The position numbers and the translations under genes are program-made. DNA of 51,616 nucleotides. Source: Verrucomicrobiota bacterium. Its GTDB lineage: Bacteria > Verrucomicrobiota > Verrucomicrobiia > Chthoniobacterales > UBA10450. A model generated the notes under the pieces. The model saw only the letters and a list, made by a program, of their open reading frames with translations. It made no database searches and had not been told where the DNA came from. The DNA lies in the NCBI GenBank assembly GCA_041167205.1, contig JBEEHC010000125.1, positions 1 through 51,616 on the forward strand, in the 5' to 3' direction. Shown here piece by piece: positions 6,104 to 51,545 of the stretch (the first letter of the stretch is position 1; each line of letters opens with the position of its first letter).

Positions 6104-7120
6104 CTAGCTTGATATCGTTAGGACCACGCGGAATCGCACCTTGCCGCTGTGCATCTGCTCGTAGGCTTCCGCTACGCGGCTGAGCGGGTATTTCTCGATC
6201 ATCGGGTGCACGCCGCTCAACGCGCTGAATTCCAATGTGTCCTGCGAATCTTTCGCGGTGCCGGAATACCACCCCGACACCGATCGCCTTCCCATGATCA
6301 ACGGCATCACGTTCACGGACAACGGTTCGTTAGGCGCGGCCGGCACCAGCAGGTTGCCGTCCGGCGCCAATCCATCCACCAGCGCGGAAATCGCCTCTGC
6401 GTTCGGCGCTGTTCCCAGGATCACGCGCGCGCCGCCGAGCTTTTGCAATTCCGCCGCCGCATCGCCACTGCCGGAATCGATGTAGTGATGTGCGCCCAGT
6501 TTTTTCGCCAACGGTTCTTTATCCTTTCCGCGGCCCACCGCCACGGTCTTGAATCCCATCTGCCGCGCGTACTGCACTCCGAGATGTCCCAGTCCGCCGA
6601 TGCCGTGCACCGCCACCAGGTCGCCGGCGCGCGCGCCCGAATGGCGGAGCGCGTTGAAGACGGTGACGCCCGCGCACATGAACGGCCCGGCTTCTTCCGC
6701 CGGCAATTCATCCGGAATCACGGCCAGCACCGCCGCCGGTGCGATCAAGTACTCGGCATATCCGCCGTCGAAATCGATCCCGGTGACTTTGCGATTGACG
6801 CACATGGCGAAGTCCCCGCGCCGGCACGGTTCGCAAACGAAACAATGTCCTCCATGCCAGCCCACCCCGACGCGCTGGCCTTTGCTCCATGCAGTGACGT
6901 TGGGGCCGACCGCATCGACGCGGCCCGCGATCTCGTGACCCGGCACGCGAGGAAATTGAAGCCCCGGCCAGATACCCTCCTTGACGAGCATATCGCTATG
7001 GCAAATGCCGCACGCCTCCACCTTCACGCGAACCTGCCCGGCGCCTGGCTCCGGGATCTCGCGTTCCACCAATTCAAAATCCCCACCCGCTTTGCTGATC
7101 TGCGCCGCCTTCATCCTCAT
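6104..7120 (-). CDS. zinc-dependent alcohol dehydrogenase (AdhA-like, MDR superfamily)
   Basis: GICHSD catalytic Zn motif, structural Zn cysteines (CFVCEPCRRGDFAMC), and GIGGLGH Rossmann motif. An alternative start lies two codons downstream (7114). Confidence 0.9.
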   Translation of the reverse strand: MRMKAAQISKAGGDFELVEREIPEPGAGQVRVKVEACGICHSDMLVKEGIWPGLQFPRVPGHEIAGRVDAVGPNVTAWSKGQRVGVGWHGGHCFVCEPCRRGDFAMCVNRKVTGIDFDGGYAEYLIAPAAVLAVIPDELPAEEAGPFMCAGVTVFNALRHSGARAGDLVAVHGIGGLGHLGVQYARQMGFKTVAVGRGKDKEPLAKKLGAHHYIDSGSGDAAAELQKLGGARVILGTAPNAEAISALVDGLAPDGNLLVPAAPNEPLSVNVMPLIMGRRSVSGWYSGTAKDSQDTLEFSALSGVHPMIEKYPLSRVAEAYEQMHSGKVRFRVVLTISS

Positions 7121-38847: not shown

Positions 38848-39312
38848 CTATTGCGATGAAACAGGCTTTGGTTTTTGGGTGAAGGTCGGGAGCTTCGAGA
38901 TAAGGGCGATCATCCCATCAATGTCTGACTGCCGCTTCGCCTCGAGCCAGACGTCCACCTTCCAGGCATCATAAAGCTTAAGCGCAGCTTCCTGACTGAT
39001 GGTTCCGTCCAGTGCAACTTTCCTGTGCCACGTTAAAGGGAACATGCCCAGGCGACCGGCTACCGTCGTGCTCTTGGCGTCCCGCTTGAAATGCGGCCAG
39101 CCGCCGATGTAGATGTTCACCGTTCCAGACAGCGGCGGCATCGCGCGGCCGGAATAGGCATCGAAGTCAGATCCAACGGATTTCGTCCACTCAATCTTCT
39201 TCGACGAAACCGGACCCAGAAACTCCGCGAGCTCTTTTGGTGGCATTGGCTTCCCGGCCTCCGCGTGAGTGGAGACCAGCAACGCGAGGAGAAGTACAAA
39301 TGAAATACGCAT
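38848..39312 (-). CDS. secreted hypothetical protein
   Basis: Signal peptide MRISFVLLLALLVSTHAEA. No recognisable domain. Confidence 0.55.
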   Translation of the reverse strand: MRISFVLLLALLVSTHAEAGKPMPPKELAEFLGPVSSKKIEWTKSVGSDFDAYSGRAMPPLSGTVNIYIGGWPHFKRDAKSTTVAGRLGMFPLTWHRKVALDGTISQEAALKLYDAWKVDVWLEAKRQSDIDGMIALISKLPTFTQKPKPVSSQ

Positions 39313-39404
39313 GAGCCAAGATCAGGCGCGACTCTGACCCGCGCAAGCGGCAGCCGCTGCGTCACATTAGTCAGCCCCGAACCCCAAAGTCGAAACCAGT
39401 GCGC

Positions 39405-39767
39405 TTAGGCGGTGCGCTTTTCTTCCGGCAGAGTGACATGATAAACAAGCTTGGCCCGAAGCTCATCGAGTAAGTCTGGATGCATGAACTCGTAGTCATC
39501 CGGGATGTGAAGGCAGATGACTCGCTTTCCGTGCAGAGCTTCGGGAAACTTTCGTCTCAGCCGATTCACGTGCGACTTCTCCATACAAAAAATAATGTCC
39601 GCCCATCCCAAGTGTCCTTCGGTGACAACAATGCGAGCATCGGGCTGCGTGCCAACGGAGCGGACCTGATAGTGAGGTGAACCCTCGAACAACTTTTCGG
39701 CCGTAAGACTGCGAAATCGGTTTCGACTGCAGACGAAGAGCAGCTTCTTAGTCGCAGAGACAGTCAC
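39405..39767 (-). CDS. low-molecular-weight phosphotyrosine phosphatase-like protein
   Basis: CX5R(S) P-loop LLFVCSRNRFRSLTAE near the N-terminus. GTG start at 39767. Confidence 0.7.
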   Translation of the reverse strand: MTVSATKKLLFVCSRNRFRSLTAEKLFEGSPHYQVRSVGTQPDARIVVTEGHLGWADIIFCMEKSHVNRLRRKFPEALHGKRVICLHIPDDYEFMHPDLLDELRAKLVYHVTLPEEKRTA

Positions 39768-39784
39768 AAGAAAATGCGAACACC

Positions 39785-39907
39785 ATCTAACGAGAACAAG
39801 ATGAGCGACGCCTGCCGAGAGCGCGCGTCGATTGGAATGAAGGTGTTTTCATAATCTGGTGTGACGCGCCAGAGCGGCCAGCGGTTAGCTGCAGCGATTG
39901 GTTAGGT
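39785..39907 (-). repeat. attC-like site A (123 bp)
   Basis: Minus strand: ACCTAAC-caatc-GCTGCAGC...GGCGTCGCTCATC-ttgttctc-GTTAGAT. The ends fit RYYYAAC and GTTRRRY. It is similar to site B at both ends with a divergent centre. Confidence 0.6.
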
Positions 39908-40321
39908 GCTGGGCGTGGCTATACATAAAGCTTTGAGCTCGGACAATGGCATCTGTGGCGACCCAACAGTGTCGCCGTAAACAGCCAAGACTGCGGAGGG
40001 AGAGAGCCGACGCGAGAGCAGCCGACGCGCAAAAAAGACGACGGCTGCATCCGGTGCACGGGACCCGGCTGGAATTCTGAAGGGCACCGTCGATCCGACA
40101 GCGACCGCGTCTGCGCCAGTGGAGCGCTTCCAAAGCTCATCGATCACGATGTGTGGGCGAGAGGCATCTGAAACGAAATGACCATAAGCCACGACTTGCG
40201 AACGCGCGACTTGAGAACGGATGTCCACCGGCGCGAAATCTTCGAGAGTGATCCACGCTAGCGCAGCGACGAATGCTGCTCCCACGCAGATCAACATCCA
40301 CTTTAGCGTGCGCGTTCGCAT
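39902..40321 (-). CDS. cassette-like ORF: N-terminally anchored hypothetical protein
   Basis: One TM helix (LKWMLICVGAAFVAALAWI). The stop TAA lies inside the ACCTAAC inverse core of site A. The start abuts the GTTAGGT core of site B. Confidence 0.5.
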   Translation of the reverse strand: MRTRTLKWMLICVGAAFVAALAWITLEDFAPVDIRSQVARSQVVAYGHFVSDASRPHIVIDELWKRSTGADAVAVGSTVPFRIPAGSRAPDAAVVFFARRLLSRRLSPSAVLAVYGDTVGSPQMPLSELKALCIATPST

Positions 40322-40325
40322 ACGC

Positions 40326-40448
40326 ACCTAACGAGAATAAGATGAGCGACGGCTGGCGGGAGAGCGCGTCCCTGTGGATTGAGGGTGGATTTTCACGCAA
40401 GACTACGAACCAAAGCTGCCAGCCGTTCGCTCCATCGCTTGGTTAGAT
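40326..40448 (-). repeat. attC-like site B (123 bp)
   Basis: Minus strand: ATCTAAC-caagc-GATGGAGCGAACGGCTGGC...GCCAGCCGTCGCTCATC-ttattctc-GTTAGGT. It has an 18-bp inner stem with two unpaired bases (G, A) on the 5' arm. Confidence 0.65.
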
Positions 40449-40464
40449 GCGTTGGGGGACGTCA

Positions 40465-40761
40465 TCAAGGGAGTGGACGGCGCCTGAGCCGGGATATCAG
40501 CACGAACAGAGCGATCCATAGAAGCGGGCTCGCGATCCACGCCGCGATGCACGCAGCCACGAGCAGCGAAGGGTGCTCGATCTGCGACACAGCAACGTGG
40601 GAGAGCAAGATAGAAAACGGGAACACTACGACTTCGAAAAGCGGTCGTGATATCGCGCGCACCATTGTGTTGGCGCCAGGCGCGGGTGAAAGGAGGCAGA
40701 TAACCAATATGACTGCGAACAGCTGATGCACAGCAAAGATGGTCAGGGCGCGTTTTAGCAT
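40465..40761 (-). CDS. cassette-like ORF: 98-aa three-TM hypothetical membrane protein
   Basis: The ATG is part of GTTAGATG. The stop lies 17 nt before site B. Confidence 0.5.
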   Translation of the reverse strand: MLKRALTIFAVHQLFAVILVICLLSPAPGANTMVRAISRPLFEVVVFPFSILLSHVAVSQIEHPSLLVAACIAAWIASPLLWIALFVLISRLRRRPLP

Positions 40762-40798
40762 CTAACGAGAATTAGACGAATATTTTTCGTCTAACTCG
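40760..40798 (-). repeat. truncated attC-like copy C (right half plus short hairpin)
   Basis: Minus strand: CGAGTTAGACGAA-aaata-TTCGTCTAATTCTC-GTTAGAT. It shares cgtc..ttctcGTTAGAT with sites A and B but lacks an RYYYAAC partner. Confidence 0.45.
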
Positions 40799-40867
40799 GC
40801 ATTTCGGGGTGAATGAGGGGGAAGTTGCACGATTGAACCGGTTTTCCGCGGCAATCGCCGCTGCCTC

Positions 40868-41539
40868 CTAGCAAACGATGGCGTGGCGGCGGCAGACGCC
40901 GGAGAGCATTTCCCAAAGCGCGTCGAGAATGCGGTCGACGGCATTCGTAGTGGTCGCGGCGTTGTCGTCGGTGATGTAATCAGCGAGCATGGCGCGTTCG
41001 GCGGCGGCGTGTTCGCGATCGGCTTCGACGTGGACACTGAAGTATTGGTAGTCCCGCGGCTCGGTCATCTGGTAATTCTCGACCAGGCCTTTGATCTTCG
41101 ATTCGGAGACGGCGGGAATCTGGCTTTCGTAGGCGTAAAGCGCGGCCAGGCCTTCGGTGGTTGTGCCTTCGGAGCAAACGGAGCGGAACGTACCGATCAG
41201 GTTCGAGGTTTCATTCCACTTTGGGGACGACTGGACGTCTTCCTTTGAAACACCGAGGCCTTCGGCGAATTGGAGCCACAGCTCGGGATGATTCGGAGTG
41301 CCGGCTTCTTCGTCGATGAGGTTACCGAGCAATTGCTTGCGCGTCGGTTGATCGTCGCAGCGCGCGTGCACCGCCGAAAGATAGGTCGGGAAGGCGGCGA
41401 CGTGGTGATAATATTGGCGCGCGTAATCGGCCAGCGCGGCCATGCTCAATTCGCCGCGGGTCCACGCCAGGTAGAACGGATGGGTGAGAAGATGCTTCGC
41501 GGCGATTTGTCGATCGATGGAGTCGAGGTGTGTGTTCAT
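40868..41539 (-). CDS. CADD-family haem-oxygenase-like di-iron enzyme (TenA/PqqC superfamily; Chlamydia CT610-type pABA synthase homologue)
   Basis: HPFYLAWTRGELSMAALADYARQYYHHVAAFPTYLSAVHARCDD...LIDEEAG.PNHPELW...LYAYESQIP...YFSVHVEADREH closely parallels the CADD sequence as I remember it. ATG at 41539. Confidence 0.8.
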   Translation of the reverse strand: MNTHLDSIDRQIAAKHLLTHPFYLAWTRGELSMAALADYARQYYHHVAAFPTYLSAVHARCDDQPTRKQLLGNLIDEEAGTPNHPELWLQFAEGLGVSKEDVQSSPKWNETSNLIGTFRSVCSEGTTTEGLAALYAYESQIPAVSESKIKGLVENYQMTEPRDYQYFSVHVEADREHAAAERAMLADYITDDNAATTTNAVDRILDALWEMLSGVCRRHAIVC

Positions 41540-41600
41540 ATTGGTTCTCCGAGTTGGTTGGTATTTATCCGCGCGATGGATGAAGTGCGAATCTTTTTTG

Positions 41601-41670
41601 AAATGTAGAGGCGTTTGTGTCAAACGCCTGTTGTATTGGTTCAGGCGCTTGGCACAAGCGCCTCTACATT
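41601..41670. repeat. REP-like palindromic element R1 (AATGTAGAGGCG...CGCCTCTACATT)
   Basis: Terminal 12-13-bp inverted repeats enclose two inner hairpins (GGCGTTTGtgtCAAACGCC, AGGCGCTTGgcaCAAGCGCCT). Confidence 0.7.
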
Positions 41671-44600
41671 CACATCGCGGCCAGGATGTGTTTGATGCCG
41701 CGAATGGGAATGACGACCCAGCTCGGGCGATTGTTCAGCTCGTAGCCGACTTCGTAGACAGCTTTGTCGAGCAGATACGCTTCGAGCAGGACCTGGAGAT
41801 CGCCCTCGCGTGGCGGGATGAAAGACGCTCCCCTGGTCGTCTTGAGATATCTCTGCAAGAAAACGCTGCTCATCTGCCGATACCAAAGATCGGCCCAGCG
41901 CTCGAGGAACGGGATGTCTTCCGGACGCATGGCGGGCTGCCAGAGCGCGCTGTAAGCGGCGTACTGGAACGAGCGCATCATGCCGGCGACGTCGCGCAAC
42001 GCGGAACGCTTCAGCTTGCGCTCGCTGAGCGGACGCGCCGGCTCGCCTTCAAAATCGAGAATGACGAAATCCTTTCCGGTATAGAGCGCTTGTCCGAGGT
42101 GGTAGTCGCCGTGAATGCGGATCTTCGAGGCGGCGGAACGTTGATCGAGAATGCGCTGCTCCTGCGCGAGGATCTTCTGTTCCGCGGCGAGCACTTCCTT
42201 CGCTTCCACTTGGAACGCTTCGGGGAGGCCCGGCAATTCTTTTTGAAGCAAGGCAAACGCGCGGCGCAACGATGCGCGCATATTTTGATAAACGGAACGC
42301 TGCGAGAGCGCGTTGAATGGTTCGGGCGCGAAGGCGCGATCGTCCGGGTCGGAGGCGAGCGCGAGATGCAGCTCGCCGGTCCGTCGGCCGAGCAGCTTCG
42401 CCTTTTGCGGGTAGATGCCGCCGATCAATTCCTCCAGGAGCGGGCCGGGCGGCGCGTGCTCGATCTGCAAATCCGCTTTTCGCCCCAGCACCCGCTCGTA
42501 AAAGCGACCGACGGAATCGAGCGTGAGCGCCCACGCATCGCCTTCATTGGCCACGGCGGCCTGCAAAAGACAAACAACCGTCGGCTCAAATTTTCCCCGG
42601 CGATATTCGATCGCGCCGGCAAACGCGGGCACATGCGCGAATCCGCGCCGCTCGGTCAGGAACCGGGTAATCTCGACGTCGGGATTCACGCCATCCTCGA
42701 GCTTGCGGTAAAGCTTCAGGAAAAATTTGTTCTCGAACAACATCGACGAGTTGCTCTGCTCCGCCGCGACGACATGGGAGGGCGGAATCTTATCGTCGAG
42801 CGTCAGCGCGCTGCCGGGCGCTCCCAGCAGATCACCGGATTTTCCTTTCAAACTCTGACCTTGCGTGATGGTCCGGAAAAGGTGCTCCCGGAAAGCGGCA
42901 TCCCAGATCGCATCGTGAAGGATCGCTTCCTCCGCGCCGGCAAAACGCGCGATCACCGCCTGCGGGGCCGCTTTGGCGATCGCATGAGCCGGTTCTCCGA
43001 CGGCGATCTGTACGGGCAGCGCGTAGGTCTCCGGCGGGCCGTCAGTGTATGTGACTTCGAGGAACCAGAACTGCGCGCCACCTTCGCCAGGCATCGGCAC
43101 TTGCTCCGCAATGCGCAGCTCGCGAATCGTGCGCGCTTTCGCGCCGAACCAACGGCAATGCCGAATGAAATCCGGCAAGACCTCCCGCTCGAAACGGGAG
43201 CGCTGACCATCGGCCAGAAGCGTCTGCAAATTCGGCGCGGCATTGAGCGTGGGCACGACGCGCTCTTGTGACGCGCGCACGGCGGCCGGCTGAGCGCGGA
43301 GCACAAACCAGTAGTGCGCGTGCGGCCCGAGCGTAATCGGATACGGGGATTCCTTGATCGCGGGGAAGTAGTTTTGGCTGAACACCTCCATCAGGCTGCA
43401 ACCCGCGAAGCGTGACAGGTCGATCTCCGCCGCCTGCGAAAACCGTGACAGGTTCACGACGACGAGCATGATCTCGTCTTCGTGCCGGCGCAGAAATGCC
43501 AGGACCTTCGGATTATCCGGATAGAGAAACTCGAGCGAGCCGCGCGAAAACGCCTTGAAATTTTTTCGCATCGCGATGACGCGGCGCATCCACCACAGGA
43601 GCGACGACAAATTCTTCTGCTGATTTTCGACGTTGATTGCCTCGTAGTGGTACTCCGGGTCGATCGTGATCGGCAGATAAAGCTGTTGCGGATTCGCCTT
43701 GGAAAAACCAGCGTTGCGGTCGGGGCTCCATTGCATCGGCGTACGCACGCCGTTGCGGTCGCCGAGATAAAAATTGTCGCCCATCCCGATTTCGTCGCCG
43801 TAGTAGAGGACGGGCGTCCCGGGCATGGAGAAGAGCAAAATATTGAGCAGCTCGATCTTGCGGCGGCTGTTCGCGAGCAAGGGCGCGAGGCGGCGGCGGA
43901 TGCCGAGATTAATGCGCGCCAGCGGATCGTTCGCGTAAACGCGATACATGTAATCGCGCTCCTCGTCGGTCACCATTTCGAGAGTGAGCTCGTCGTGATT
44001 GCGCAGGAACATTGCCCATTGGCAGTTCTCGGGAATCGCCGGTGTCTGATCTAGAATGTCGATGATCGGAAATCGGTCCTCCATCTGCAACGACATGAAC
44101 ATCCGCGGCATGAGCGGAAAGTGGAAGTTCATGTGCGACGCGTCGCCTTTGCCGAAGTAGGCCACGGCGTCTTCGGGCCACTGGTTTGCCTCGGCCAGAA
44201 GCATGCGGCCTTGGAAATGCGCGTCGACGTGCGCGCGTAATTTCACCAGGTATTCGTGCGTCTCGCGAAGATTCTCGCAGCTCGTCCCTTCGCGCTCATA
44301 TAGGTAAGGCACAGCATCGAGCCGCAAGCCGTCGACGCCCATGTTCAGCCAGAAATCGAGCACCTTCTCAACGAGGGCGTGGACCTCCGGGTTATCGAAA
44401 TTCAGGTCGGGCTGATGCGAATAAAAGCGGTGCCAGTAATAAGCCTTCGCCACCGGATCCCACGACCAGTTCGAGGTCTCGAAATCTTTGAAGATGATCC
44501 GCGCCTCCTTGTATTTTTCCGGCGTATCGCTCCAGACATATAGGTTGCGCTCCGGCGATCCGGGCGCGGCCCGGCGCGATTTCTGGAACCACGGGTTGTG

Positions 44601-51397: not shown

Positions 51398-51463
51398 ATG
51401 TAGAGACGCTTGTGCCAAGCGCGTGGCCAAATAATAGGCGCTTGGCACAAGCGCCTCTACATT
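51398..51463. repeat. REP-like palindromic element R3
   Basis: GATGTAGAGACGCTTGTGCCAAGCGCG-tggccaaataat-AGGCGCTTGGCACAAGCGCCTCTACATT. Same architecture as R1. Confidence 0.7.
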
Positions 51464-51545
51464 CAGCAAAAGACCGTTGCGCGATGGCGATCTTTCGCGA
51501 ACAGTTTGTCTCCGTCAGGGGCTATGGACTGAGGACTTACGAACC

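Follow-up and report, generated by a model that had tools for sequence, protein, structure and literature searches.

Clusters of attC sites lacking integrases (CALINs), which comprise at least two attC sites without a neighboring integron integrase gene (intI), are common among bacterial genomes, and 95 % of the surveyed CALINs have no recognizable intI pseudogene nearby (PMC4889954). The attI search of IntegronFinder is confined to exact matches to class 1-3 sites, and CALIN surveys skip attI (PMC4889954). In Xanthomonas, CALINs are found at conserved chromosomal positions by lamG, secF and recD (bioRxiv 10.1101/2025.06.18.660453). Integrons are on record for Verrucomicrobia/Verrucomicrobiota (PMC4889954, PMC8618304). 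The taxon-specific attC models that have been published leave out Verrucomicrobia (PMC8352920). The Chthoniobacterales and Candidatus (Ca.) Udaeobacter are described as pervasive and abundant soil bacteria (10.1101/053942, 10.64898/2026.08.07.743348); the literature searched contains no paper that ties integrons to either of them. Here we analyze a locus in contig JBEEHC010000125.1 of a Verrucomicrobiota bacterium, a soil metagenome contig (JGI 3300044703) that was examined over positions 1 to 51,616 (hereafter, the window). The locus consists of an attI and two gene cassettes, without intI, and we consider it probable (roughly 85 %) that it represents an integron recombination platform devoid of its own integrase, that is, an attI with two mobile cassettes lodged between chromosomal housekeeping genes of a soil member of the Chthoniobacterales. 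The components of the array, in the order in which they are read, are the following:

40760..40797, minus strand: attI-type site, identified by its match to the intI-linked sites of the lineage
40332..40765 (434 nt, T40765 to G40332), minus strand: cassette 1, composed of orf98 and attC site B
40761->40465, minus strand: orf98, an open reading frame (ORF) of 98 aa, hydrophobic
40326..40448 (40448->40326; 123 nt), minus strand: attC site B, the last 6 nt of which are part of cassette 2
39791..40331 (541 nt, T40331 to G39791), minus strand: cassette 2, composed of orf141 and attC site A
start at GTG 40327, ATG 40321 or a later ATG, stop TAA at 39904-39902, minus strand: orf141, 141 aa
39785..39907 (39907->39785; 123 nt), minus strand: attC site A, with R'' ACCTAAC and R' GTTAGAT

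A preceding sequence-only reading of this DNA had proposed two attC-like sites of 123 bp with RYYYAAC/GTTRRRY ends, and both are present where they had been placed. On the minus strand, site B reads ATCTAAC-caagc-GATGGAGCGAACGGCTGGC...GCCAGCCGTCGCTCATC-ttattctc-GTTAGGT (123 nt) and site A reads ACCTAAC-caatc-GCTGCAGC...GGCGTCGCTCATC-ttgttctc-GTTAGAT (123 nt), the layout of site B being R'', a 5-nt spacer, the L'' arm, a variable center, the L' arm, an 8-nt spacer and R'. The two sites are 541 nt apart start to start, with 418 nt between them, and have in common a 24-mer that occurs twice in the window and not at all in 100 shuffles. The stem of site B, made up of GAT/ATC, GAGCGA/TCGCTC and CGGCTGGC/GCCAGCCG, is paired at 17 of 17 positions, one fewer than the 18 bp claimed previously, and carries on its 5' arm (L'') the two unpaired bases that had been claimed, one extrahelical G and one extrahelical A. 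Folding of site B with DNA parameters yields, on either strand, the canonical long hairpin with two single-base bulges. In site A, only 11 of the 17 positions are paired, and the minimum-energy structure, with the same parameters, differs from the canonical hairpin. The arms of site A come from different covariation classes (5' arm GCTGCAGCTAAC..., 3' arm ...GTCGCTCATC), and this combination recurs, with about 4 stem mismatches, at L113:5151-5273 (here and below, L with a number labels one related genome or metagenome locus and P with a number a homologous protein). Site A is probably a hybrid or decayed attC, and as a structurally compromised site it may recombine poorly; it and its L113 counterpart may be hybrids that arose by homologous recombination between attC sites, or else a tolerated variant.

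The core sites of the window itself bear a mark of site-specific recombination. In site B, R'' (ATCTAAC) is exactly complementary, read in reverse, to the GTTAGAT ahead of cassette 1, and not to its own R' GTTAGGT; likewise, R'' of site A (ACCTAAC) exactly complements the GTTAGGT ahead of cassette 2, and not its own GTTAGAT. This relationship is the one predicted for crossover at G|TT, which would leave the last six bases of R' derived from the neighboring cassette.

Both sites belong to a large family of repeats. A 20-mer from the 3' end of the repeat was scanned over 185,579 species genomes, which gave at least 119 stretches, and a profile made from both window copies detected at least 587 copies in these at least 119 genome loci, with up to 16 copies per 8 kb; the further copies, for which a search had been advised as a check, thus exist by the hundreds in the lineage. 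The hosts of the listed copies are nearly all Chthoniobacterales, Ca. Udaeobacter or 'Verrucomicrobiae' soil metagenome-assembled genomes (MAGs), and what their loci share with the window is the repeat alone, not the ORFs. The copies are 75-88 % identical to one another (site B is 86-88 % identical to those in L010, L108 and L098), their modal length is 123-124 nt, and R'' RYCTAAC together with R' GTTAGRY is found in >95 % of 428 sites. When 112 diverse copies are aligned, the L''/L' stem of 17 pairs proves to be 93.3 % paired, with compensatory changes in 14 of the 17 pairs; when the partner is slid by 1-3 columns, pairing drops to 19-38 %, and none of 500 shuffles reaches the observed covariation. 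The bulged positions are occupied by G in 104 and by A in 111 of the 112 copies, with a spacing of 3 + 1 + 6 + 1; the extrahelical bases on the bottom strand are C and T, and the central spacers are asymmetric (5 and 8 nt). Furthermore, of 210 informative neighboring pairs of sites, 147 have an R''(n) that reverse-complements R'(n-1), and 18 have one that reverse-complements its own R'.

We also built a covariance model, R1, from 110 copies from elsewhere plus both window sites (112 training rows). On the minus strand, this model of the family itself assigns 109.7 bits to site B (E = 1e-24) and 91.4 bits to site A (E = 3e-20), scores that are partly given by construction because both sites are inside the training set. 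On the plus strand, site B obtains just 15 bits; R1 matches the sites on the minus strand only, in agreement with the polarity, shared with the ORFs, that had been assigned to them. The 51.6 kb contain no other R1 match above noise, and no further attC-like site was recovered from the window by a regular expression combined with arm pairing, by motif search or by R1. With their covarying stem family, conserved extrahelical bases and G|TT crossover signature, both window sites are genuine attC sites of integrons and belong to a family specific to this lineage. Separately, we observed the same attC family, with up to 10 copies, in four loci from MAGs labelled Acidobacteria, Terriglobales or Bryobacteraceae (L004, L028, L088, L097), which points to either mis-binned repeat-rich contigs or arrays common to several phyla.

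At the head of the array lies a third site (40760-40798), previously described as a third, truncated copy of attC in a locus where no attI was visible. The sequence is real, but its interpretation had to be revised: a truncated attC was rejected because the family profile and R1 miss the site (R1 gives it merely 6.7 bits), and the attI sites linked to intI match it. The site comprises a core resembling a direct repeat (DR), GTTAGAC (40795->40789), an L box GTCTAAT (40777->40771), a spacer TCTC and an R box GTTAGAT (40766->40760), and it includes a perfect 9-bp inverted repeat, TTAGACGAA/TTCGTCTAA, with the loop aaata (fold z = -4.5). This arrangement resembles the classical attI architecture, with inverted L and R boxes and direct repeats; a C-rich stretch reaching to about 40830 may also be part of the site. 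The orf98 cassette begins exactly at the G|TTAGAT of this site, and the crossover would fall between G40766 and T40765.

The 18-mer TCGTCTAATTCTCGTTAG and the hairpin upstream of it match the site located between intI and the first cassette in the complete integrons L012, L092, L146, L211 and L254, and in the complete integrons of the lineage the interval between intI and the first cassette ends with ...TTCGTCTA(A/C)TTCTC|GTTAGRY. The window site, GAGTTAGACGAAaaataTTCGTCTAATTCTCGTTAGAT, can be compared with CGAGTTAGAyGAAACTyTTTCGTCTAATTCTCGTTAGRY, which follows intI in L146, L211 and L254 among others. The subtype CCGAGTTAGACGAAAnnnnTTCGTCTAATTCTCGTTAGRY, to which the window's sequence belongs, is found about 50 bp past the stop of a co-oriented intI in L144, L146, L154, L173, L191, L211, L227, L242 and L254. 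A metagenome scan with the 18-mer retrieved at least 120 loci, in which the motif is present once per locus at the head of the array, usually with attC sites of the same strand following it. Judging from these matches, the third site is an attI of the kind carried by the integrons of this lineage. The gene upstream of the window attI is a CADD-like gene, and linkage to intI in cis is not observed here. The idea that a piece of intI survives between CADD and attI was rejected, the alignment scores of the 72 nt from that stop to the attI hairpin against the intI 3' end being at the level of shuffled sequences.

The start of the first cassette ORF, an ATG at 40761-40759, lies within GTTAGATG, and the TAA stop of the second one (39904-39902) lies inside ACCTAAC, the R'' of site A, both as described before; the second ORF, previously given as 140 aa, is read here as 141 aa and has an N-terminal hydrophobic segment. 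Neither orf98 nor orf141 matches a family in Pfam or NCBIfam. Among 5.8 billion proteins, orf98 has one homolog (P0127, 88 % identity), which is a cassette in the complete co-oriented integron L254, with an attI of the same type; there, it is placed behind an attC, and the 5' junction TTCTCG|TTAGATGCTAAAACGC is identical in the L254 cassette (behind attC) and in the window (behind attI). For orf141, just 4 homologs were found in the same protein set. One of these (P0122, 76 %) is the first cassette by the N-terminus of a divergent intI and an attI in L250, and that cassette has the same stop-holding R'' ACCTAAC but a different, 96-nt attC; another (P0125, 49 %) is followed by an attC in L251. 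On the strength of these sequence comparisons, both cassettes are mobile between contexts, and the shared junctions are indirect evidence that an integron integrase may recombine these attC sites. In L254 (4617-5850), the attC of the orf98-homolog cassette is interrupted at its R'' by an insertion sequence (IS) that encodes an rve-family transposase, with the junction ACCTAG|GCTCAAC... in place of the window's ATCTAACCAAGC.

Integrases were sought by tblastn (E < 1e-3) with IntI1 as the query. No IntI homolog was detected in the window, the ends of which are 10.8 and 39.7 kb away from the array, so the lack of an integrase noted from the letters alone is upheld. With no intI within these distances and two minus-strand attC sites 418 nt apart, the locus falls under the definition of a CALIN (PMC4889954), as had been suggested. 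The intI genes looked for in the lineage turned out to be numerous beside the repeat arrays: full-length IntI homologs, 48-55 % identical to IntI1, adjoin the arrays of L075, L012, L019, L026, L089 and L108, and the L075 protein scores 492.8 bits (cut-off 265) against TIGR02249 'integron integrase', over model positions 1-314 of 315. Complete integrons, with intI, attI and cassettes in cis, are thus encountered in relatives and not in the window. Both orientations of intI exist in the lineage, divergent (classical) and co-oriented with the cassettes. The former was seen in L126, L130, L183 and L214 and the latter in L134, L164, L166, L211, L254 and L108, and the attI variant tracks the orientation (...TCGTCTAC... 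with divergent and ...TCGTCTAA... with co-oriented intI).

The window is one of many arrays in which attI stands apart from intI. Of the metagenome loci scanned, 48 extend 1.5 kb or more past the motif on its upstream side, and 32 of these 48 have no IntI homolog. In the latter, attI follows an ordinary gene of the same orientation at a distance of 15-220 nt; at least eight different housekeeping genes have such a site 15-200 nt behind them, without an intI trace. The genes ahead of the sites include those for glutamine synthetase, ribosomal protein S4, inositol-1-phosphate synthase, a YfiH-like oxidase, a deacetylase, an aminotransferase and others, and each of these upstream genes recurs in several independent contigs. 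Examples are ino1-attI (L132, L148, L157, L162, L179, L233), glnA-attI (L171, L177, L231, L189, L125), rpsD-attI (L160, L192, L218) and yfiH-like-attI (L143, L165, L195); the glnA-linked attI sites fall into three subtypes. First cassettes were compared by local alignment scores with shuffled controls, global identity being misleading (baseline ~0.72). In contigs with a shared upstream gene and attI, the 200 nt upstream give local scores of 75-148, and the 200 nt past the crossover a score of 8, equal to that of shuffles. The sequence past the crossover is unrelated, and therefore the first cassette is different in every contig of a group. Both kinds of locus occur on the 3.58-Mb contig CBDCJE010000002.1, which contains a complete co-oriented integron (intI, attI and cassettes) at 1.36 Mb (L026 and L090 are on this contig) and, at 3.33 Mb, an attI with 2 attC sites and no IntI homolog within the 8-kb stretch.

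It is plausible, then, that IntI acts in trans on integrase-less attI sites. We tentatively put forward, as an idea with odds somewhat against it, a 'distributed integron' of the Chthoniobacterales, in which many attI sites just behind expressed housekeeping genes of the same orientation (glnA, rpsD, ino1, the yfiH-like gene, CADD) would hold small, turning-over arrays, all depending on the IntI made in trans from one gene, or from a few, at other places in the genome, with the host promoter replacing the cassette promoter (Pc) and the attI module possibly spreading between loci. If this were true, the CADD-attI array of the window would be one satellite of such a distributed integron, and the source of CALINs, which for the most part lack a recognizable intI pseudogene in their vicinity, could be named concretely.

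The array lies among housekeeping genes (TreS-Mak, the CADD-like gene, FabI and a GlcD-like oxidase), and its immediate flanks are the following:

40868..41539, minus strand: CADD/TenA-PqqC-family gene (223 aa), upstream flank, assigned by Pfam
39405..39767, minus strand: low-molecular-weight phosphatase-like gene (120 aa), downstream flank, assigned by Pfam LMWPc

The CADD-like gene, which lies on the same strand as the cassettes, matches Pfam Haem_oxygenas_2 (6.9e-33) and TENA_THI-4 and has 6330 homologs, and the TreS-Mak/CADD synteny is found in relatives. The match of the phosphatase-like gene to LMWPc has an E value of 2.2e-06. In the closest relative found, L244, the CADD protein is 92 % identical and the phosphatase-like gene (88 % aa identity) follows after 103 nt; beyond it come a 96-aa ORF, an orf154 homolog and a transglutaminase-like gene. 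By the model, L244 has neither attI nor attC at this place. The 1073 nt of the window at 40845->39773, which include attI, both cassettes and both attC sites, stand for the 103 nt of L244, and therefore the phosphatase-like gene is a conserved flank. The earlier remark that no attC follows this gene remains valid (there is no R1 match between 39405 and 39312), and no homolog of it was found in ~1.3 Mb of sampled arrays. As a third cassette of the fresh array the gene was rejected, because it adjoins CADD in L244 without attI or attC, is not followed by an attC and lacks a homolog in the sampled arrays; it may nevertheless be a cassette that became fixed long ago.

Among relatives, the CADD-FabI interval varies, but not through this repeat: what lies downstream of CADD differs, and no attC of this family, and hence no cassette turnover, was seen at the CADD locus. 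The spacers of the array are not kept there as ordinary promoter regions, an outcome that, like the further copies and the intI genes of the lineage, fails to refute the integron assignment made previously. With regard to transcription, there is no terminator on the coding (minus) strand between CADD and the cassettes, and apart from the CADD-like gene no source of transcripts running into the array is visible.

Several other features of this neighborhood deserve mention. A palindromic intergenic element at 41602-41670, between TreS-Mak and the CADD-like gene, is built from a 29-nt inverted repeat, with 90 % complementarity, that encloses two short hairpins; the element recurs at 51398-51465 near the end of the window and also in relatives (L248 10058-10121, L121 ~6890-6910), and it looks like a repetitive extragenic palindromic (REP)-like repeat or a family of bidirectional terminators. 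In L245-L247 (5788-6772), CADD is followed by a Gp49/helix-turn-helix (HigBA-like) toxin-antitoxin pair and then by a 53-aa duplicate of the CADD C-terminus, which suggests that an insertion duplicated or displaced the CADD 3' end. In L123 (6300-6620), TreS-Mak and CADD are separated by a gene for a Y1 (IS200/IS605-type) transposase, which the window lacks.

Under the favored reading, an integrase-less platform, an IntI of the lineage would have recombined the folded bottom-strand attC of a circular cassette with the double-stranded attI at G|TT. Because insertion takes place at attI, the latest cassette would be the one beside it, that is, orf98, with the older orf141 pushed distally. The integrase could be encoded elsewhere and act in trans, or it could once have been adjacent and since been lost. 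The cassettes, which have no room for promoters of their own, would probably be expressed by read-through from the co-oriented CADD-like gene. Since site B is structurally intact, cassette 1 should remain excisable by attI x attC recombination, and the mismatches of site A would tend to fix cassette 2. The choice and timing of the IntI, the present activity and the read-through expression are inferred; the assignment of the attC sites and their family, the cassette limits at G|TT, the movement of both cassettes between contexts, the sequence match of the attI to intI-linked ones and the lack of intI in the window are shown.

A number of observations weigh against this reading. Nine relatives with the CADD locus (L121-L123, L244-L249) are without attC by profile or model. 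No sigma-70-like promoter was found in 39200-41750, in a scan that is limited to the sigma-70 consensus and uninformative for non-canonical promoters. The 6 mismatches among the 17 stem positions put site A in the worst class among the 112 sites, and the attC scores come from a model made from the very family that was scored. The first extrahelical base on the bottom strand is C, as opposed to the G of attC(aadA7) and the Vibrio cholerae repeat (VCR), the canonical pair being G and T. Finally, the window comes from a metagenome contig, no intI can be assigned to its genome, and action in trans is for this genome no more than plausible.

Part of this evidence would fit a dead relic, in which a complete integron once occupied the site, intI was deleted, and attI and the cassettes are decaying with recombination over. 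The absence of attC at the CADD locus of relatives, combined with the decayed attI-like site CCGTCTCCATCCC[GTTAGAT] at the same place in L123, implies that the locus may be an inactive relic; possible attC fragments in L121 and L244 are further decayed traces of this kind, site A is mismatched, the window is without intI, and Cury et al. (PMC8618304, PMC4889954) name the loss of intI as one way in which CALINs may arise. We nevertheless regard this scenario as rather unlikely, given that no resemblance to the intI 3' end above that of shuffles is seen in the 72 nt that separate the attI hairpin from the CADD stop, that the attI fits the intI-linked consensus over the whole simple site and has a perfect hairpin, and that all 17 pairs of site B are intact. 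Furthermore, an integron that looks alive carries a copy of the orf98 cassette with 88 % identity, and the other integrase-less attI loci have a different first cassette in each contig.

The integrase-less attI sites without intI traces behind at least eight different housekeeping genes speak for another alternative, off-target insertion, whereby IntI would have put the cassettes, or a unit of attI plus cassettes, at a secondary site of the attG type downstream of CADD that was never a resident platform. IntI can insert cassettes at non-att genomic sites (bioRxiv 10.1101/2022.09.11.507474), and the 1073-nt block that takes the place of 103 nt of L244 extends from just before attI to ~12 nt past the R' of site A. 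A simple attC x attG insertion would, however, not bring the left half of attI (DR, hairpin and L box), which is present; the decayed attI-like site at the same locus in L123 suggests that the site is old, and no mechanism that moves attI is known, all of which makes this explanation improbable. Least credible of all, to the point that we give it hardly any weight, is the notion that the 123-bp repeats are unrelated to integrons and represent a REP-like intergenic repeat, one resembling a miniature inverted-repeat transposable element (MITE), or terminators that resemble attC. Another family of palindromic intergenic repeats does exist in the window (41602-41670 and 51398-51465), but the repeats discussed here are strictly co-oriented with short ORFs and occur in arrays by integron integrases, their R'' complements the upstream R' and not their own, different arrays have the same ORFs, with identical junctions, between sites of this kind, the extrahelical bases are conserved, and the spacers are asymmetric (5 and 8 nt).

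Taken alone, the window array is an ordinary CALIN with two small genes of unknown function. The integrons of this lineage and their very large cassette family are apparently undescribed in the literature searched, and the Chthoniobacterales/Udaeobacter group, with its large homogeneous attC family, integrases in both orientations and many small arrays, constitutes a gap in integron surveys. A model of this attC family could provide a host for part of the uncharacterized cassette pool of soil. An array without integrase can retain an intact attI, which current integron finders overlook, and if the integrase-less attI sites work as docking sites, this bears on the origin and activity of CALINs.

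Among the described systems, the sedentary chromosomal integrons (the Vibrio VCR arrays and the Xanthomonas integron at ilvD) are similar in having a homogeneous lineage-specific attC family (~123 nt here), long chromosomal arrays beside intI, as seen in the relatives of the window, and cassettes mostly of unknown function; they differ in that the system analyzed here belongs to Chthoniobacterales hosts with both intI orientations, and the window array has two cassettes and no intI. With the attI1 of class 1 integrons, the window site has in common the inverted L (GTCTAAT) and R (GTTAGAT) boxes, the G|TT crossover in R and an upstream GTTAGAC where DR sits. Unlike attI1, it forms a perfect 9-bp hairpin from the upstream repeat and the L box, has no adjacent intI and shows no identity to attI1 beyond the GTTAG core. 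Insertion at attG (Loot et al.; bioRxiv 10.1101/2022.09.11.507474) likewise places cassettes outside a complete integron and next to a host gene that could provide a promoter, whereas the proximal junction in the window has a full attI-type site in place of a bare GNT target. The locus also resembles CALINs: as in these, a co-oriented pair of attC sites follows promoterless ORFs of unknown function with no trace of intI or its pseudogene, and, as in Xanthomonas, CALINs stand at conserved chromosomal positions (bioRxiv 10.1101/2025.06.18.660453). The window array differs in being headed by a recognizable attI.

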